NCBI GenBank assembly: GCA_021771915.1 | Contig: JAETNY010000009.1 | Span: 40,038-104,037 of the forward strand | Reading direction: 5' to 3' | Origin: Bacillota bacterium | GTDB lineage: Bacteria; Bacillota; Dehalobacteriia; UBA4068; UBA4997 | Length of the DNA: 64,000 nt | In this document: piece by piece, positions 3,066-12,682 of the stretch | Numbering within the stretch: the stretch's first letter is position 1 | Layout of the letters: each line of letters starts with the position of its first letter | Notes under the pieces: generated by a model | What the model saw: the letters and a program-made list of their open reading frames with translations, nothing else | What the model was told of the DNA's origin: nothing | Database searches by the model: none | Position numbers and translations under genes: made by a program

Positions 3066-4240
3066 TTATTTTGCTACGTTTTCGCAAAATCGCATCAACA
3101 TCATAGCCACTTCGGCGCGCGTGGCATTGCCGGCCGGCTTCAACGCGCCGTTATCGCCATTGATAATACCTGCGCCAACTGCCCATTGCATGGCTTCCTG
3201 CGCCCAATCAGAAACACTGCCGCTGTCGCTGAAATTGCTCAAAGAACCTTTAACGCTAACATCATAACCTTTAAACTGCGCAAAACGATACAGAACCGCC
3301 GCCAGCTGCTCACGCGTTATCATATCGTTCGGGGCAAACGTGCCGTCTTTATAACCATTAACCACGCCGTTGGCCGCCGCCCAGGCAATCGCTTCGCTGA
3401 ACCACTGACCAGAAGCCACATCGCTGAAATCAGCCGCGCCGGCTTTCGGCTCACCCTCCAGGCGGAAAAGCATAGTTACCAGCATCGCCCGGGTAGTCGT
3501 GGCGTCAGGCTCAAACTTGCCTGCGTCCGTGCCGTTCATCATGCCTTTGTTGTAAACATAAGCAATCGCTTCGGAATACCAGGCGTTATTCTGCACGTCG
3601 GCAAACTTATTGTTAACATTCGCCGCCGTTACCGTCTTATTGTTGTCGATTGTTGTACCAGGTTTATTTGTGTCGCCCGGTTTTTCGGTAGTACCCGGTT
3701 TGGTAGTGGTGGTGCCGCTCGGCCGGCTGCTGCCGCCATGACTGCCACCGCCGCCATTATACTGCCAGATTGCATAAACAGTTGTATCCGCCGTAAAAGT
3801 ATAAACATCATTGGCTTTCACTTTGTTTTCGCTGTCTTTGTCGCCGATTGCCCAAGCAGTCAGAGTATAGCGGCTCTTGGTCGCCGTGGGCATTTTGTAT
3901 GTTTCGCCTTTGATTACATAATCAGGGTTGGTGATACCCTCCGCCAGAGTGCCGCCGTCAGTATCAAAGGTAATAGTGTAAACCTTATCCGCCGTAACCG
4001 TTACTGCGCAAGTCGCTTTTTTATCACCGGCTGTGGCGGTGATTATGGCCGCGCCCTTGCCAACAGCCGTAACCTTGCCGTCTTTATCCACCGTGGCAAC
4101 CTTTGCGTTGCTACTGATAAACATGATATTTTTGTTAGTGGCGTTTGCCGGGGCAACTGTGGCGGTCAGTGTTGCTGTGCCGCCAACTTCCAAATTCAAT
4201 GCGGTTTTATCCAGAGTTACGCCAGTAACTGGAATATTTG
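3066..4240. repeat. Shared C-terminal module (Big_2 + List_Bact repeat + linker + 3 SLH), copy A; diverged inverted paralog of 57900..59055
   Basis: Protein-level identity is near-colinear over about 390 aa. Nucleotide identity is roughly 80% by eye. Confidence 0.8.
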
Positions 4241-6125
4241 TTGGCTGTTCTGGCATAGTGCTGTTATAATGAATTTGTACGTTTTCAGGTACATTACTTT
4301 CCGCATTTTTAATTTTTAACCAGTCTTCCTCTGTGCCCTCATAATACATATCTGTTAGGTTTTTTGCCCATACAAACATGGTTTCAGGAAAAGCACATTC
4401 CACAACGCTTTTTGGTATATAGATTTCGTTTAAAGCATCAGCCATAAAAGCACTTTCGATAATAAATACGCTATCAGGAACAACGTAAATTTTGTTTGTA
4501 TTTGCATCAAAATATTGAATTAAAGTAGTTTTATCTTTGTCAAATAAGACCCCATTTTCTATACAATAATTATCATTATTGGTATTTAATAAAACTTCCG
4601 TTAATTTAGGACAACCAGACAAGGCACCAATATAAATTTTTTCAACACTTGCCGGAATTGAAACACTAACAAGATTGTTGCAACCATTAAAACAAAAATC
4701 ACCTATTTCAAGTAAACCCTCCGGTAAAATTATTTTAGTCAAATTTTCCTTGTCTGTAAATGCAAATGGAGCAATATATTTTACAGCAGTTCCCTTAATT
4801 TCCGACGGAATATCAGCAACCGTAACGCCAACATCACAACCTGTTATAGTATTGGTTGCTTTAATAAAATAAATATTGCCTCCCACAACAGGATATAATA
4901 ATTCAGGCTCAGGATAATCTGTATAATCATAAGAATAGCCAAATAAATCATCTAATGAATAACCGCTTTTAGATAATAGTGTGCTTAATTCTTTTTCACT
5001 GCCCTCATAAGTTATATCCAGATTACTGTTAGTATCCAAGGACTGTAAACCAATACTTTTTATGCCTTTGTGCATAGTCAAATATCTTAAATTGCTGCAA
5101 TTATAAAATACATGATTGCCTATTTGGGTTACAGGTACATCATCAATACTTTTAGGTATAACAACAGAAGTAACAGTATCATCACAGCCAACTATAATAC
5201 CTGTTGCTTTATCAAAATACATATATCCACCAGATACTGCAACTTTTTCATATGATGAGAAATCTTCACTCGCAAAAGAAATATTGACATTTTTCAAAAC
5301 ATCATCAACCGTGTCCATCACATTTATTTTTGCCCATTCTGCTCGAGAACCTAAATAATTAATATTTTTTAAATCAGATGCAGCAAATGCAGAACCATAA
5401 ATTCTGGTAATAGTTGCTGGCACAGTAATATCAGCCAGCTTATAACAATTTGCAAATACACTTCTTGAAAAGCCCATAAATCCTTCAGGGAAATTAATAT
5501 TTTCTAAATTTCTACAATCATAAAATGCAGATTGATTAATCATTGTACAAGAGATTGGTAATTTAACACTGGTTAATTGATTACATCTATTAAATGCATC
5601 ATGATTTATGGTTGTTACAGTGTCTGGAACTGCATATATTCCTGTTTTACCTATTGGACATCTTAACAAAATAGTTTTATCTTTATTAAATAAAACACCA
5701 TTTTCAGTAGAAAAATCAGAATTTGAGGAGGATACCATAATTTCTTTTAACTTAGGACACCCTGAAAAAACACCACTGACCTCATTTCCCCCAATGCTAT
5801 TTACAGTAGCAGGTATGCTAACCATATAGAGATTATCGCAACCAGCAAAGGCATTTTTACCAATAACTTTTACACCATTATAAACCGTAACAACTGTAAT
5901 ATCGTCACGATATGCGGCCCAAGGTTGCGTTTCTAATGTATAATCTGGCATTGCCGCATTAATTTGTCCCTCATATTTGTAAATTTCCAGATTGCCCTCA
6001 CTGTTTAACTGCCAACTTATGTCTCCGGATAGACCACTGGCAACAGTGGCCGCCCAGGCCGCAGGCGCCATACTTAGCGCCAGCAAAAATGCCAGCGCCA
6101 GCACGGCAAAAATTTTCTTTTTCAT
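3066..6125 (-). CDS. Cell-surface protein with BspA-type leucine-rich repeats, a Big_2 domain, a Listeria-Bacteroides repeat, a G/S/T/P linker and three SLH domains
   Basis: 1019 aa with a signal peptide (MKKKIFAVLALAFLLALSMAPAAWA). The LRR_5-like repeats are AT-rich (roughly 4300-5900). The C-terminal 390 aa, including the SLH motifs FADVQNNAWYSEAIAYVYNKGMMNG.., is paralogous to the 56725..59055 protein. Confidence 0.85.
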   Translation of the reverse strand: MKKKIFAVLALAFLLALSMAPAAWAATVASGLSGDISWQLNSEGNLEIYKYEGQINAAMPDYTLETQPWAAYRDDITVVTVYNGVKVIGKNAFAGCDNLYMVSIPATVNSIGGNEVSGVFSGCPKLKEIMVSSSNSDFSTENGVLFNKDKTILLRCPIGKTGIYAVPDTVTTINHDAFNRCNQLTSVKLPISCTMINQSAFYDCRNLENINFPEGFMGFSRSVFANCYKLADITVPATITRIYGSAFAASDLKNINYLGSRAEWAKINVMDTVDDVLKNVNISFASEDFSSYEKVAVSGGYMYFDKATGIIVGCDDTVTSVVIPKSIDDVPVTQIGNHVFYNCSNLRYLTMHKGIKSIGLQSLDTNSNLDITYEGSEKELSTLLSKSGYSLDDLFGYSYDYTDYPEPELLYPVVGGNIYFIKATNTITGCDVGVTVADIPSEIKGTAVKYIAPFAFTDKENLTKIILPEGLLEIGDFCFNGCNNLVSVSIPASVEKIYIGALSGCPKLTEVLLNTNNDNYCIENGVLFDKDKTTLIQYFDANTNKIYVVPDSVFIIESAFMADALNEIYIPKSVVECAFPETMFVWAKNLTDMYYEGTEEDWLKIKNAESNVPENVQIHYNSTMPEQPTNIPVTGVTLDKTALNLEVGGTATLTATVAPANATNKNIMFISSNAKVATVDKDGKVTAVGKGAAIITATAGDKKATCAVTVTADKVYTITFDTDGGTLAEGITNPDYVIKGETYKMPTATKSRYTLTAWAIGDKDSENKVKANDVYTFTADTTVYAIWQYNGGGGSHGGSSRPSGTTTTKPGTTEKPGDTNKPGTTIDNNKTVTAANVNNKFADVQNNAWYSEAIAYVYNKGMMNGTDAGKFEPDATTTRAMLVTMLFRLEGEPKAGAADFSDVASGQWFSEAIAWAAANGVVNGYKDGTFAPNDMITREQLAAVLYRFAQFKGYDVSVKGSLSNFSDSGSVSDWAQEAMQWAVGAGIINGDNGALKPAGNATRAEVAMMLMRFCENVAK

Positions 6126-6542
6126 TATATATAACCTCCTAAAAAATTTTGTATCTCAGCAGCCGAAACACCAAAGGGCATATTTAAGTGAAGGAGTTGG
6201 TGAAAATATGCCCCCAGGTATTGGCCGCCAAGACAACAAAAAATACGCGCGCAGGCATAATTCACCCACACACGCATAGAAAACCCTTTTCAGGAGGGAT
6301 TATACTTCTAAAGCGCAGCACCACACAACCGCTTACCAAAAAACGGTTGAAAAAAACATCTTGTAAAAAAGATACAGTTATACTATAATAATAACTGGTA
6401 GTGGCACTTGCACAAAAAAGCAGTTGTGTATGGCTGGAGTAGTCAGCCTGCATAGGGGCGCTGGGTATTCGCAGTACCTCAGCCCCTGCCGCTACTTTTT
6501 TTGTTGCCCCGGTTACTACAAAAACAACGGGATACACCTTTA
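6126..6542 (-). promoter_or_regulatory. Conserved long 5' leader of SLH gene A, with a terminator-like hairpin at about 6232..6277 on the minus strand
   Basis: About 90% identical to leader B in two blocks. Hairpin AUGCGUGUG-N17-CGCGCGUAU followed by a U-run, about 110 nt before the start codon. Confidence 0.55.
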
Positions 6543-8663: not shown

Positions 8664-8686
8664 CATTCGTCAGCAAGGATATTTTT

Positions 8687-9745
8687 ATGTCTAGTATTAA
8701 TGTTATCGACCTTTTTTGTGGTTGCGGCGGCCTGTCTTTCGGATTTTCAAAGGCTGGTTATAATATCCTGCTTGGAATTGATAATGACGCCAAAGCACTG
8801 GAAACATTTAAATTAAATCACCTTAATGCAAAAGCAATTTGCAGTGATATTACCCAAATATCATACCAAAAAGATATTAAACCATTAATAGAACCATGCC
8901 AAATAGATGTGATTATTGGCGGCCCTCCCTGTCAGGGTATGTCCTTATCCGGCCCCAGAAAATTCGATGACCCAAGAAATTCCTTATATTTATCTTATAT
9001 CAGACTGGTTAAAGAAATTCAACCTAAAGCTTTTGTTATTGAAAACGTACCTGGTCTAACCAGTCTTTTTGGCGGACAGATAAAAGATAATATAATTGAA
9101 CAGTTTAGCCAAATCGGCTATCATGTGCAGTATAAAATCCTTTGCGCATCAGACTATGGAGTGCCACAAAGCAGACGCAGAGTATTTTTCATCGGACTAA
9201 AATCCGGCAGCTTCACTTATCCACAGCCAACTGATAATGTTGTTACTTGCAGCATGGCTCTGAATGACCTGCCCAGTTTAATCAGCGAGTTGGGCGATGA
9301 AATAATGGCCTATGCAACAGAACCGCAAAACGATTATCAAAAACAAATGCGAAAACATTCAAAAAGTGTACAGAACCACATTGCTGCTAATCATACAGAC
9401 AAAGTACGCAAAATAATCTCTTTGGTTCCTGACGGCGGAAATTATAAAGATTTGCCGGAAGAATACAAAACAAGTAGAAATTTTCATATTGCCTGGACAC
9501 GATTTGACAGCAACAAGCCCGCACCTACTATTGATACCGGGCATCGTCATCATTTTCATTACAAATATAACCGGGTTCCAACTGTAAGAGAATGTGCAAG
9601 ATTGCAGTCTTTTCCAGATAATTTTATTTTTCTGGGTAATAAAACTCAACAGTTCAGACAGGTTGGCAATGCCGTGCCGCCACTTTTAGCGCAAAGAATT
9701 GCTGAACAATTAAAGAAATCATTGGAGAATGAAATAAATGGCTGA
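8687..9745 (+). CDS. DNA (cytosine-5)-methyltransferase, M1 of a restriction-modification cassette
   Basis: Motif I FCGCGGLSFGF, motif IV GGPPCQGMS, motif VI ENV, motif VIII RRRVFFIG, motif X QVGNAVPPLLA. The region is AT-rich relative to its flanks. Confidence 0.9.
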   Translation: MSSINVIDLFCGCGGLSFGFSKAGYNILLGIDNDAKALETFKLNHLNAKAICSDITQISYQKDIKPLIEPCQIDVIIGGPPCQGMSLSGPRKFDDPRNSLYLSYIRLVKEIQPKAFVIENVPGLTSLFGGQIKDNIIEQFSQIGYHVQYKILCASDYGVPQSRRRVFFIGLKSGSFTYPQPTDNVVTCSMALNDLPSLISELGDEIMAYATEPQNDYQKQMRKHSKSVQNHIAANHTDKVRKIISLVPDGGNYKDLPEEYKTSRNFHIAWTRFDSNKPAPTIDTGHRHHFHYKYNRVPTVRECARLQSFPDNFIFLGNKTQQFRQVGNAVPPLLAQRIAEQLKKSLENEING

Positions 9746-11201
9746 ATATAAAATTCCCGAAGAATATTATTTCAGATTACACCATGTCCGCCCACGTTTT
9801 AAGAGTGATATTGAAAATGTCTTAATTTATATGGCGGAAGAAATTACTTCAATAGGACAAAAACCAACCCAGGAGTTTGTCAGGCTTATTAATTCAGCCG
9901 TTTTCAGATATCCCGGCAATGCGCATAGCACACTTAAAACTATAAATAATTGGCGCACTGAAATATCTGCTTTATTTGGTTTTATTGAACATGATGAATT
10001 AACCTGCAAACCCGGCAGGCGTGCTGTTGAATTAGCAACAAACCAGGATTTGGTAGAAGCCTTTAAGGTTTTTTTATATAACTTTCAATATCCAGGCGCT
10101 CATATTAAACCACACCGCATTTTAGAACAAATTAATGCCGGTATTCATTTTAAACCGGCGCAATATATATTACGTTTGCTAAAACACGCTAATAAAAACA
10201 GCCAAAACGCGGTTGGTTTAACAAAGTTTGAGGTTTGTCACTGCATTTTCAACGATTTAAGAGTAACCCGTGATAATGAAGGCGTTGAAAACACCTGGCA
10301 GAGAATAAAACTAAATCGCCAAAATAATTTAGAATACGACCAAACAGGCGATGTGATAAGATATGCCGGCGATATTGTTGACTACATGGAAAAAGCCAAT
10401 TTGTTAAAAACATATGACAACCGTACATATTATCTTAATATGCAGGAGAAAACAATTATCAACCAATTCTGCCAATCAACAGAATGGTTTGACGGTTATG
10501 ACCATATGCTGCAAAATCGTGCCGGCAATAAGACCAGTATTAAGGAACAAACAAATGCCTGGTTTGAATATGTAAACAGGGATATTGAAAATATTGATTT
10601 TTCAACAAACATTTTTGCATACATTGAATATAACCCAACAAAACTGCAACAATTACAAGCAGGCACTGGCAATATAACAAAAGGTTCTTTTAAAACTCTT
10701 ATAAAACGTGAAGCGGAATTGAATAAACGCATTGCTGTTGGTGAAGATGAACTTACGGCTAAGGATATCGGCGATATCGGCGAACAGCTGATACATGGCC
10801 ATGAATGTATGAGAATGAAGCTGGGCAACAGAGAAGATTTAATACATCTAATAAAATTGATACCAACACAATTTGCAGTTGGCTACGATATAAATTCTGT
10901 CGAATTAAATGAACTGAAAAGATTTATTGAAGTAAAAACAACAATTAGCGCTAAGCCATTGCATTTTACTAAAATACATTTGACCAGAAACGAATGGAAT
11001 ACAGCCAGAAGTACCCATGATCGTTACTATATTTATCGGCTGATGTTAAGTAAAACTGAACGCAAATTATTTTTGTTGCAAGACCCAGTTGGCTTATACG
11101 AAAAGAAGTTAATAGAAATTGCTTATAATGACGGAATAGATATTATATTTAACCCCAAAACAGCAGGAAAGTATGAGGAATTGCTTACATGGCAAAATTA
11201 A
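9738..11201 (+). CDS. Putative restriction endonuclease: novel N-terminal region plus a C-terminal DUF3883-like PD-(D/E)xK nuclease domain
   Basis: Translationally coupled between the two C5-methyltransferases, with 8-nt and 13-nt overlaps. The C-terminus reads DIGDIGEQLIHGHE...GYDI...ELKRFIEVKTT...YYIYRL, i.e. a D...E-x-K core. Confidence 0.55.
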   Translation: MAEYKIPEEYYFRLHHVRPRFKSDIENVLIYMAEEITSIGQKPTQEFVRLINSAVFRYPGNAHSTLKTINNWRTEISALFGFIEHDELTCKPGRRAVELATNQDLVEAFKVFLYNFQYPGAHIKPHRILEQINAGIHFKPAQYILRLLKHANKNSQNAVGLTKFEVCHCIFNDLRVTRDNEGVENTWQRIKLNRQNNLEYDQTGDVIRYAGDIVDYMEKANLLKTYDNRTYYLNMQEKTIINQFCQSTEWFDGYDHMLQNRAGNKTSIKEQTNAWFEYVNRDIENIDFSTNIFAYIEYNPTKLQQLQAGTGNITKGSFKTLIKREAELNKRIAVGEDELTAKDIGDIGEQLIHGHECMRMKLGNREDLIHLIKLIPTQFAVGYDINSVELNELKRFIEVKTTISAKPLHFTKIHLTRNEWNTARSTHDRYYIYRLMLSKTERKLFLLQDPVGLYEKKLIEIAYNDGIDIIFNPKTAGKYEELLTWQN

Positions 11202-12166
11202 GAGTTGCATCACTATTTTGTGGCTGCGGCGGAACTGATGTTGGTTTGCTTGGCGGTTTTGATTTTATAGGTAAACATTATGCAAATAATAATATAGAAA
11301 TTGTTTATGCCAACGATATAAACGATAATGCCTGTAAATTATTTGAAGCAAACTTCAATCTCAAACCAGATAATAGGGATATCAGAAAAGTACAGTGTAC
11401 AGAACTGCCGGAATTTGATATATTAACCGGCGGCTTTCCCTGCCAATCTTTCTCTATCGTTGCTCAAAACCCAAAACGCTTAGGCGTTAATGATGAAAAA
11501 GGAAAACTCTTTTTTGAAATGTGCCGTATCCTTAAAGAAACAAAACCCAAATGTTTTGTGGCTGAAAATGTTAAAGGAATTTTAACAGCTAATAAAAAAA
11601 GTGCATTTCCCTTAATTTTGCAGGAATTTGCGGAAAGTGGCTATGACTTGCAATATGCTATTTTAAATGCCGCGGATTTTGGCGTGCCACAAAAAAGAGA
11701 ACGTGTAATAATCGTTGGCTTTCGTAAAGATTTGAATATCAGATTTAAGTTTCCGACAGTTCCTATTACTAACGAAACTGAATATGTGCCTCTGAAAAAG
11801 GTATTGGAAAAACATGTGCCAGAAAAATACTATTTCAGCGCTAAAGCGGTTCAGGGAATGTTAAAAAACCGGGAAAGTATGAACAAAGGACGCGCGCAGG
11901 ATATTACAAAACCATGTAATACAGTTGGCGCGCATTTGGCCAAGGTATCGCTTAACAGCACAGACCCCGTTTTATTTGAAAACAACAGATATCGACGCTT
12001 TACACCAAGAGAAGTTGCCAGAATTCAGTCTTTTCCTGAAGAATATAAATTAACTTGCAGTGAAACCGCTCAATATCAGGCGCTGGGCAATGCAATACCA
12101 CCTGTTATGTTCTGGTATGTTGCACAGGCAATAAGCCGACATTTAACCAAAAAAGCATCAATCTAA
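11189..12166 (+). CDS. DNA (cytosine-5)-methyltransferase, M2 of the cassette
   Basis: FCGCGGTDVGL (motif I), GGFPCQSFS (motif IV), ENVKGIL (motif VI), RERVIIVGF (motif VIII), ALGNAIPPVM (motif X). Confidence 0.9.
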   Translation: MAKLRVASLFCGCGGTDVGLLGGFDFIGKHYANNNIEIVYANDINDNACKLFEANFNLKPDNRDIRKVQCTELPEFDILTGGFPCQSFSIVAQNPKRLGVNDEKGKLFFEMCRILKETKPKCFVAENVKGILTANKKSAFPLILQEFAESGYDLQYAILNAADFGVPQKRERVIIVGFRKDLNIRFKFPTVPITNETEYVPLKKVLEKHVPEKYYFSAKAVQGMLKNRESMNKGRAQDITKPCNTVGAHLAKVSLNSTDPVLFENNRYRRFTPREVARIQSFPEEYKLTCSETAQYQALGNAIPPVMFWYVAQAISRHLTKKASI

Positions 12167-12202: not shown

Positions 12203-12231
12203 TTGACAATAAAACAATAGCATGCTATAAT
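12203..12231 (+). promoter_or_regulatory. marR promoter (TTGACA-17-TATAAT) with an embedded 12-bp perfect palindrome ATAGCATGCTAT (12217..12228)
   Basis: Read directly from the sequence. The palindrome lies between -35 and -10, as expected for an autoregulatory MarR operator. Confidence 0.55.
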
Positions 12232-12256: not shown

Positions 12257-12682
12257 ATGAACTTGCAAAACAACTGCTGCGCTATGCTGAAGCAGCTGCA
12301 TGATGAAATTGGAAGACGAGTCAACAACTCCCTGCGCTCTCAAAATATGACATTTGCGCAAATGCACGTTCTGTTGCTGCTGCATGACGCTCCCAACCAT
12401 CAACTGCCCCTGAAAGATTTGGAAGCGCTAATGCATGTGGCGCAATCCACCGCTGCCGGCATTGTCAGCCGTCTGCAAAAAAAGGAGTTGGTACAGGCGC
12501 TTGATGACGCGGCCGACCAACGTATTAAAATTGTGCAGCTGACAGAAAGCGGTTTAACCTGCTGCCAGACAGCCAACAAACATATAAATGAAACTGAAGC
12601 CGCTCTTTTATCCGGTCTGACGGAAACCGAACAGGTAATTTTTTTAACCCTGCTCAAAAAGCTGCGCGACACTGTTTGTTAG
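12257..12682 (+). CDS. MarR-family transcriptional regulator
   Basis: 141 aa with a winged-HTH MarR pattern (FAQMHVLLLLHDAPNHQLPLKDLEALMHVAQSTAAGIVSRLQKKELV). Confidence 0.85.
   Translation: MNLQNNCCAMLKQLHDEIGRRVNNSLRSQNMTFAQMHVLLLLHDAPNHQLPLKDLEALMHVAQSTAAGIVSRLQKKELVQALDDAADQRIKIVQLTESGLTCCQTANKHINETEAALLSGLTETEQVIFLTLLKKLRDTVC

Follow-up and report, generated by a model that had tools for sequence, protein, structure and literature searches.

A BpuJI-family type IIS restriction-modification module from a gut Firmicute, with a possible change of recognition word

The segment 8687-12166 of the window (the whole stretch of 64,000 nucleotides that was analysed) is, with little doubt, a compact, horizontally acquired type IIS module of the BpuJI family, judged from its sequence, with three genes in the order M1-R-M2. 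The reference system, R.BpuJI/M1.BpuJI/M2.BpuJI of Bacillus pumilus, is type IIS and recognises CCCGT (Sukackaite et al. 2007, PMC1874659). Endonuclease R is a further member of this already described family, and a curated Pfam family exists for each of its domains. The analysis shows directly the domain families and fold, the catalytic residues, how the operon is built, that the three genes are orthologous to those of the BpuJI system, and that the module is widely conserved; we infer the activity, oligomeric state and cleavage pattern of R from the biochemistry of BpuJI. The three genes are as follows.

8687..9745, + strand: M1, C5-cytosine DNA methyltransferase of 352 aa, orthologue of M1.BpuJI (PF00145, E 1e-81; TIGR00675; PADLOC MTase_II)
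9738..11201, + strand: R, BpuJI-family type IIS restriction endonuclease (PF11564 and PF13020)
11189..12166, + strand: M2, C5-cytosine DNA methyltransferase of 325 aa, orthologue of M2.BpuJI (PF00145, E 4e-79)

The Open Reading Frame (ORF) that the initial annotation had placed at 9738-11201 lies at exactly those coordinates on the + strand, and it is intact, with 487 aa plus a stop codon (protein start MAEYKIPEEYYFRLHH) against 484-490 aa in relatives. R shares 26% identity with BpuJI over the full length, and hhalign comparison of the R clade with the BpuJI clade gives a probability of 100% (E 4e-43). The REase_II model of PADLOC matches R, while an NCBIfam search with the R nuclease gave no match, so that a naming pipeline would give only “DUF3883 domain-containing protein”. 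An identical protein is already present in NCBI/ENA/Logan assemblies, without a name. The gene had been put forward as a novel restriction endonuclease; the restriction endonuclease stands, flanked as it is by two methyltransferase genes, but the novelty does not, as more than 2,300 homologues have the same two-domain architecture. The protein is divided as follows.

9738..10607, + strand: recognition domain, residues 1-290, BpuJI_N fold with two winged-helix/HTH subdomains (Pfam, PDB, AlphaFold model)
10608..10757, + strand: inter-domain linker, residues 291-340 (pLDDT 40-55, low model confidence)
10758..11198, + strand: nuclease domain, residues 341-487, NOV_C/DUF3883, archaeal-Holliday-junction-resolvase-like PD-(D/E)XK fold (Pfam, fold search, PADLOC)
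10770..10784, + strand: G345-D-I-G348-E349 motif, invariant in both clades
10887..10889, + strand: D384, equivalent to catalytic D348 of BpuJI (alignment)
10929..10937, + strand: E398-V399-K400, equivalent to catalytic E367-V-K369 of BpuJI (alignment)

The N-terminal two-thirds of R, earlier left unassigned, can be assigned: residues 4-276 match PF11564 (“Restriction endonuclease BpuJI - N terminal”) across the whole profile (1-278/278) with an E-value of 3.3e-99 and a score of 332 bits, the cut-off being 25. The BpuJI N-terminal fold was solved in a DNA complex (PDB 2VLA), and PDB 2VLA/5HLT are found with the R N-terminus by phmmer (E 2e-17). An AlphaFold check of this region had been proposed, and its outcome is homology to a DNA-binding fold (BpuJI_N): the AF2 model superposes on 2VLA/5HLT/5HNF with TM 0.86-0.87 and rmsd of about 3 A, and the pLDDT of the recognition domain is mostly 75-95. 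The supposed 330-aa N-terminal region is resolved by the model into a recognition part (about 1-290) and a linker (about 291-340, some 30 aa longer than that of BpuJI), ahead of the nuclease (about 341-487). The separable recognition and cleavage modules suggested by analogy with type IIS enzymes are thus found, as an N-terminal BpuJI_N and a C-terminal nuclease domain.

The nuclease motifs and the NOV_C match (PF13020; residues 380-445, E 1.4e-13) are confined to the last 150 or so residues, the only part in which a nuclease-like signature had been noticed from the sequence. Mutagenesis established D348, E367 and K369 as catalytic in BpuJI (PMC1874659); D384, E398 and K400 of R align with this triad and are invariant among 35 sequences. 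A fold search with the C-terminal domain matches Hjc/ST1444, NhoI and SPARDA nuclease domains. The Hjc-like kinship is seen only by fold, and a PDB sequence search with the C-terminal domain alone gave nothing meaningful. A FokI-like endonuclease was also considered and rejected, because the cleavage domain of R is NOV_C/AHJR-like and not FokI-type.

The gene order is that of the BpuJI system, published as one R gene between two m5C methyltransferase genes and found as M1-R-M2 in the actual BpuJI locus (L014). In the window, the end of M1 overlaps the start of R by 8 nt and the start of M2 overlaps the end of R by 13 nt. Over its full length, M1 shares 54.5% identity with M1 of the BpuJI locus and 29% with its M2, while M2 is 48% identical to M2 and 28% to M1, and TRD blocks are conserved within each orthologous pair. 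Of 12 genome loci, 11 have the order M1-R-M2, as do 40 of the 41 metagenome contexts that remained after de-replication, all BpuJI-clade loci examined and the Acinetobacter plasmid pANC7914.1, so that its conservation spans several phyla and one plasmid; the two exceptions among the loci examined are a nuclease-gene remnant (L012) and one truncated M2. Unlike several BpuJI-clade loci, the window module has neither a vsr nor an HTH gene beside it.

The BpuJI family is large: clustering at 50% identity gives about 100 full-length clusters, and the recognition elements fall into at least four or five signature classes. The window clade is common in gut metagenomes; this subfamily is abundant in gut Clostridia, and Saccharibacteria and an Acinetobacter plasmid carry it too. 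At least 10 assemblies of the window's species have the intact R gene at one and the same site, and truncated members of the R cluster were seen on short contigs. The GC content of the module (36.8%, against 54% in nadE and 50% downstream) and flanking genes that are not common to other hosts indicate horizontal acquisition. A search of a phage collection with the R nuclease found no homologue and a plasmid search only one full-length match, so no transfer vehicle was identified. Neither direct nor inverted repeats were found at the island borders, nor a convincing promoter directly upstream of M1 or a terminator after M2.

By analogy with BpuJI, the host would be protected by the two m5C methyltransferases, each of which would modify one of the strands of an asymmetric 5-bp site. 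The endonuclease would dimerise through its C-terminal PD-(D/E)XK domains, and each N-terminal domain, as a monomer, would bind one unmethylated copy of the site in the major groove by means of an N-terminal arm and a pair of helix-turn-helix recognition helices. Binding, which works best when two sites are present, would lift the autoinhibition of the nuclease domains, which, once released, would cut near the site in a Mg2+-dependent manner. A dimer of C-terminal domains, two-site activation, variable cuts near the site and 3'-end-directed nicking are described for BpuJI (PMC1874659), and the sequence of R contradicts none of these properties. Given the low identity of R to BpuJI (26%) and its longer linker, its cleavage geometry may differ.

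The DNA-reading elements of the recognition domain were compared between the window clade and the BpuJI clade, and two of the three differ clade-wide.

9774..9803, + strand: N-terminal arm, residues 13-22, RLHHVRPRFK (R13 and R18 common to BpuJI, remainder clade-specific)
9933..9977, + strand: D1 recognition helix, residues 66-80, LKTINNWRTEISALF (contains N71; conserved in both clades)
10347..10394, + strand: D2 recognition helix, residues 204-219, GDVIRYAGDIVDYMEK (R208; clade-specific signature)

N67 and Q208 of BpuJI are reported as essential for DNA binding (PMC9240713). N67 is kept in R as N71. All 11 window-clade members have Arg at position 208 and all 24 BpuJI-clade members have Gln, and R208 is the likely counterpart of Q208, the exact pairing being alignment-dependent: hhalign, with Q208 in a gap, and a 7-sequence MAFFT run do not reproduce it. 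We retained the pairing because it appears in HMMER, BLAST and two larger MAFFT alignments with intermediate sequences that bridge the D2 motifs of the two clades, and because the model helix 204-219 is continuous. The retention of N67 with replacement of Q208 is compatible with membership of the BpuJI family and an altered specificity. As an exchange of residues, Gln208 to Arg is the classic swap of an A reader for a G reader.

In order to look for a likely recognition word, we summarized the avoidance of 5-mers in the window and in other hosts. CCCGC is the most depleted 5-mer of the window (8 observed, 79 expected; 10-fold), while ACCGC, GCCGC and TCCGC have observed/expected ratios of about 1.1, and CCCGT (30 observed, 40 expected) is not called avoided. 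An initial cross-host test with about 10 kb per host gave no clear signal, and it was redone with 41 de-replicated hosts; ten loci that carry P0242 belong to the window's species and were therefore left out as independent hosts. In these 41 other window-clade hosts, pooled, CCCGC is observed 247 times against 360 expected (rank 4 of 512) and CCCGT 359 times against 351 (rank 338 of 512). CCCGC is the most depleted word of the pooled hosts if words contained in common palindromic sites are disregarded, and no other asymmetric 5-mer is comparably depleted in the window or the pooled hosts. In contrast, 11 BpuJI-clade hosts show no depletion of CCCGC (213 observed, 219 expected), and the contrast between the 41 and the 11 hosts has z = -3.7. 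Host phylogeny, habitat and other restriction-modification (R-M) systems in the same genomes confound this avoidance signal, which is an indirect one. CCCGC is below expectation in 32 of the 41 window-clade hosts; about a quarter lack the depletion, several of them with intact modules (L077, L001, L006 and L068). The reciprocal depletion of CCCGT in BpuJI-clade hosts is weak (0.91), and since this avoidance is only marginal, avoidance is not validated as a read-out of specificity in the BpuJI family.

The clade-wide changes in the reading elements together with the depletion of CCCGC make a CCCGC specificity plausible. Whether the window clade (Arg208, N-terminal arm RxHHxRPRFK) reads CCCGC/GCGGG rather than CCCGT/ACGGG seems to us about evenly balanced, and we count against CCCGC that the well-conserved methyltransferase TRDs also fit an unchanged CCCGT specificity. 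The fuller proposal is put forward tentatively, as a serious possibility: the window clade would be a large BpuJI-like subfamily whose specificity moved from CCCGT to CCCGC through changes to the D2 helix (Gln208 to Arg) and the N-terminal arm, with D1 and the methyltransferase lineages kept.

A third specificity, neither CCCGT nor CCCGC, is a lesser possibility, in which the avoidance of CCCGC would come from other R-M systems of gut Clostridia. The number of signature classes in the family fits such a reading, as does the undepleted quarter of the window-clade hosts, and host genomes avoid many unrelated sites; the window host, for example, also avoids GATC, CTGCAG, GGATG, GTCTC and others. 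However, CCCGC leads the depleted 5-mers of the window and, apart from palindromic-site parts, of the pooled hosts, it has no comparable asymmetric rival, and its depletion is absent from BpuJI-clade hosts.

That R is a true isoschizomer of BpuJI, recognising CCCGT/ACGGG, appears unlikely. Isoschizomeric nucleases are often as divergent as R and BpuJI. M1 (54%) and M2 (48%) share long identical TRD blocks with M1.BpuJI and M2.BpuJI, and the D1 recognition helix, N67 (as N71) and the arginines of the N-terminal arm are conserved. On the other hand, throughout the window clade the essential Q208 is replaced, along with all of the D2-helix signature and most of the N-terminal arm, and CCCGT is avoided neither in the window (30/40) nor in the 41 hosts (359/351), while CCCGC is.

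It is very improbable that the R gene is a decaying or inactive passenger beside functional methyltransferases. Nuclease genes of R-M systems are often inactivated, and the remnant in L012 and the truncated cluster members on short contigs would fit such a reading; yet the ORF of R has the full length of its relatives, all catalytic and family-invariant residues are intact, and so is the gene at the same site in the other assemblies of the species. Hardly credible is a methyl-directed (type IV), repair or other DUF3883 nuclease that merely adjoins the methyltransferase genes: NOV_C/DUF3883 does occur in many contexts outside R-M systems, such as McrB-N fusions (PMC1874659), TmtA and PD-T4-1, but the N-terminal domain of R is BpuJI_N and not McrB-N or another reader, the overlapping M1-R-M2 operon and the architecture of R are conserved across phyla, and an enzyme aimed at sites methylated by its neighbours would be self-toxic. 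The methyl-directed DUF3883 family (family III, PMC1874659) was rejected likewise: it is marked by an N-terminal McrB-N-like or other methyl reader and has no cognate methyltransferase, whereas R has a BpuJI_N domain and two overlapping methyltransferase genes.

For biology at large, a further type II R-M module of a Firmicute from the gut carries little weight, and Pfam and PADLOC, both standard annotation resources, already recognise it. For restriction-enzyme specialists there is modest value in the size of the BpuJI family and in its several recognition-signature classes. If the proposed switch from CCCGT to CCCGC is true, a modular restriction enzyme would here have changed its specificity naturally by a single base, and the two clades together would offer a natural template to those who engineer specificity, in a recognition domain whose complex with DNA is available at 1.3 A (that of BpuJI). 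Many gut MAGs, whose m5C motifs are difficult to read, would also gain assigned methylation motifs, and enzymes of the FauI/SmuI type possibly a fold.

Among known systems, Hjc and other NOV_C/DUF3883 nucleases share the minimal PD-(D/E)XK core and the catalytic motif with the C-terminal domain of R, but they lack a site-specific recognition domain and stand outside an R-M context. FokI and N.BspD6I resemble R in their winged-helix/HTH subdomains (D1, D2), with which a monomer reads an asymmetric site, and N.BspD6I is the next-best structural match after BpuJI (E about 1e-5); TM is only 0.35-0.40, however, and identity 12-14%. FauI/SmuI are type IIS enzymes of the site CCCGC(4/6), and M.FauIA is reported to be an m5C methyltransferase that acts on the second C of this site (Chernukhin et al. 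2005, cited in PMC3884633). This asymmetric 5-bp site is one base off that of BpuJI, carries m5C and is the word avoided by window-clade hosts; a literature search for a link of FauI/SmuI to the BpuJI fold found none, and FauI cleaves at a constant 4/6 offset, BpuJI at variable positions. The closest relative is BpuJI itself, with the same combination of BpuJI_N and an AHJR-like PD-(D/E)XK domain, the D...EVK triad, the GxxGE motif, a D1 helix with its essential Asn, and the order M1-R-M2 with overlapping ends and two orthologous m5C methyltransferases. Unlike BpuJI, the window nuclease, at 26% identity, has a replaced N-terminal arm and D2 helix, a linker longer by about 30 aa, shorter loops around the catalytic strand and, probably, a different specificity.

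The nuclease gene (R) was found at exactly the coordinates of the initial annotation. It lies between two m5C methyltransferase genes (M1 and M2), and the three ORFs overlap as follows.

8687..9745: M1, upstream ORF of 352 aa, whose stop overlaps the 5' end of R by 8 nt
9738..11201, + strand: R, 487 aa from an ATG start, N-terminus MAEYKIPEEYYFRLHH
11189..12166: M2, downstream ORF of 325 aa, whose start overlaps the 3' end of R by 13 nt

The G+C content of these genes is 35-38.5% (36.8% overall), versus 54% in nadE upstream and 50% in the downstream region. The gap between the nadE stop and the M1 start is only 23 nt long (8664-8686) and yielded no convincing promoter, so transcription may read through from nadE into the module or start at a promoter within the 3' end of that gene. 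Directly 3' of the module, a perfect sigma-70-type promoter (12203-12231; TTGACA, 17 nt, TATAAT, upstream TG) precedes a marR-family gene (12257-12682). Elsewhere in the window (3066-6125, - strand), a secreted protein of 1019 aa combines leucine-rich repeat, Big_2 and SLH domains; its repeat-rich part has only 33-36% G+C, and its length ranges from 852 to 1020 aa among strains of the same species.

The N-terminal region of R had been described as unassigned, which is wrong. PF11564 (Restriction endonuclease BpuJI - N terminal) aligns along its full length with residues 4-276 (profile positions 1-278 of 278; E 3.3e-99; score 332 bits, cut-off 25), and the R sequence alone retrieves 2VLA and 5HLT, crystal structures of BpuJI's recognition domain (E 2e-17, 26% identity). 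AlphaFold2, proposed earlier for this region, was run with a 35-sequence alignment as input (mean pLDDT 78) and gave confident domains at 1-290 and about 341-487, with a low-confidence linker (292-325) between them. In Foldseek searches, the N-terminal domain fits 5HNF/2VLA (target-normalised TM 0.86-0.87, rmsd ~3 A), with N.BspD6I, a type IIS-like nickase, as a distant next match, while the C-terminal domain matches archaeal Holliday-junction resolvases (ST1444, Hjc), NhoI and SPARDA nuclease domains. PF13020 (NOV_C, formerly DUF3883) lies at residues 380-445 (E 1.4e-13). The functional guess of separable, type IIS-like recognition and cleavage domains was right. PADLOC agrees, with the REase_II model PDLC03432 matching R (E 1.5e-26) and MTase_II models matching both M1 and M2. 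R adds an uncharacterised member to a known, structurally solved family and lies within a canonical M1-R-M2 module.

By homology, this module would be a type IIS restriction-modification (R-M) system, in which M1 and M2 would methylate cytosine in one strand each of an asymmetric 5-bp site. The N-terminal domain of the nuclease would bind the unmethylated site with two HTH recognition helices and the N-terminal arm in the major groove, and binding would relieve autoinhibition and let a dimeric PD-(D/E)XK domain cut nearby. The analysis shows the family and fold of R, its intact catalytic residues and the orthology of the operon; the activity, oligomeric state and cut positions of R are predicted by analogy.

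More than 2,373 homologues of R were scored in a 90%-clustered collection, with PF11564 and PF13020 in each of the matches listed; clustering at 50% gave 703 clusters at E ≤ 1e-3 and 102 at E ≤ 1e-30. Two of the 50%-cluster representatives, P0274 (751 aa, nuclease match from residue 278) and P0271 (667 aa), are far above the family-norm length and are possible fusions or mis-called genes. The identical protein occurs, unnamed, on 12 contigs of NCBI, ENA and Logan assemblies, and at least 10 metagenome assemblies of the same species carry a near-identical variant in the same place on the chromosome (nadE-M1-R-M2-marR-MATE-gyrA-gyrB). M1-R-M2 is kept in 11 of 12 GTDB loci (Lachnospiraceae, other Clostridia, Saccharibacteria), 40 of 41 de-replicated metagenome contexts and all BpuJI-clade loci examined, and also occurs on the 9.6-kb Acinetobacter plasmid pANC7914.1. 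The twelfth GTDB locus (L012, a Lachnospiraceae MAG) is a decayed copy: it holds only a nuclease fragment (6001-6267; residues 337-429), with neither M1 nor M2 recognisable beside it. Border repeats were sought around the window module and none were found. Since none of its flanking genes is common to the other hosts at the loci compared and its G+C content is low, M1-R-M2 is a mobile three-gene module.

Two of the three elements that read DNA differ between relatives of R (window clade) and of BpuJI (BpuJI clade). The BpuJI mutants N67A and Q208A lose DNA binding, as PMC9240713 states citing the 2008 structure paper. The N67 helix is common to both clades (KTLDNHRTEIA in BpuJI, KTINNWRTEIS in the window clade; N67 = N71). 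However, the Q208 column is split by clade, with Gln in all 24 sequences of the BpuJI clade and Arg in all 11 of the window clade, and clade-wide differences extend to the rest of this helix (SYSMQHIxEQLNY versus GDVIRYAGDIVDY) and to the N-terminal arm (RCTIIRGKAK versus RLHHVRPRFK). The R208-Q208 pairing comes from HMMER, BLAST and two larger MAFFT alignments, and the 61-representative alignment contains motif-bridging intermediates (RYAGDIL, RYARDFL, QHGREFL, QHIxEQL), whereas the gap falls elsewhere in a 7-sequence MAFFT run and in hhalign, which do not reproduce the pairing; in none of the alignments used does the window clade keep the essential Gln. By their N-terminal arm, D1 helix and D2 helix, the 61 full-length representatives fall into at least 4 or 5 classes, for example those with the four intermediate motifs and one with a long insert before GDFxRYARDCL, and all keep GYD...EVK. 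This sequence variety suggests several specificities within one fold.

Gln-to-Arg is a classic adenine-to-guanine reader swap, and for this reason CCCGC was named as the candidate site ahead of k-mer counting. Against a maximal-order Markov model on both strands, no 5-mer in the window with a usable expectation is more depleted than CCCGC/GCGGG (8 observed, 79 expected), versus ratios of 1.06-1.16 for ACCGC, GCCGC and TCCGC and 30 of 40 expected for CCCGT. In a pooled test on 41 independent hosts of window-clade modules (modules removed, flanks de-replicated), CCCGC reaches 247/360 (0.69; rank 4 of 512, where GGACC, CCAGG and GGCCC alone rank ahead of it). It is below expectation in 32 of 41 hosts (sign test p = 4e-4) and individually significant in 6. 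In 11 BpuJI-clade hosts the ratios are 213/219 (0.97) for CCCGC and 138/152 (0.91) for CCCGT; comparing CCCGC between these hosts and the 41 gives z = -3.7, but the two sets differ in phylogeny and habitat, and several hosts with intact window-clade modules lack the depletion. We give roughly even weight to CCCGC as the site of R, avoidance being an indirect read-out with serious caveats. These genomes also avoid many sites, such as GATC (4/278 in the window), and a site that is neither CCCGC nor CCCGT is somewhat unlikely. Unchanged CCCGT specificity is unlikely: conserved methyltransferase TRDs would fit it too, but CCCGT is at 359/351 in the pooled window-clade hosts (rank 338) and significantly depleted in 0 of 41.

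Across the window (1-64000), extreme avoidance extends to CTGCAG (4/68), GGATG (10/67), GTCTC (5/32), GGACC (12/60), GAATC (19/93), AACGTT (2/18) and GACGTC (2/16), so the host lineage evidently lived with many R-M systems, mostly encoded outside the window. A single-base specificity switch in the window clade is plausible; in an abundant gut clade, this is the sole lead worth a specialist's time in an otherwise ordinary system. FauI and SmuI also have CCCGC, the word avoided in the window and in window-clade hosts, as their site, and according to a reference cited in PMC3884633 the m5C methyltransferase M.FauIA targets it.

BpuJI itself recognises 5'-CCCGT and is a dimer with two DNA-binding surfaces; its D348A, E367A and K369A mutants lose catalysis and keep binding, and the 5-methylcytosine methyltransferase genes bpuJIM1 and bpuJIM2 flank bpuJIR (PMC1874659). 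We recovered full-length BpuJI (P0121, 462 aa, matching the PDB chain at 100% identity), with which R aligns end to end at 26% identity. D384/E398/K400 of R correspond to the three catalytic residues, and these columns, like the upstream G345..G348-E349 motif, are invariant in the 35-sequence alignment of both clades. L014, the locus of BpuJI itself (Bacillus safensis assembly; M1 367 aa, R 462 aa, M2 350 aa), has the window's gene order, with ends overlapping or abutting. Its M1 and M2 are 54.5% and 48% identical to those of the window over the full length, with long identical blocks within the target-recognition regions, versus 28-29% for the cross pairs. Given the end-to-end R alignment, the shared order and these identities, each of the three genes has its orthologue in the BpuJI system.

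Three genomes that carry BpuJI or a near relative of it have one methyltransferase gene broken into two ORFs beside an intact nuclease gene (L013 6389-7440, L015 3909-5011, L117 8882-9993). The cause is either an assembly error or methyltransferase decay, the latter being unexpected beside a live nuclease. Some BpuJI-clade modules lie in defence islands, adjoining Hachiman (HamA and helicase; L108/L109) or Thoeris (ThsA/ThsB; L115/L116). In L107-L110 and L125, a vsr mismatch-repair gene follows M2 and a small HTH_17 gene, a possible controller, precedes M1, whereas the window module has neither. The inter-domain linker is about 30 residues longer in R than in BpuJI, so the cut geometry of R may differ from that of BpuJI.
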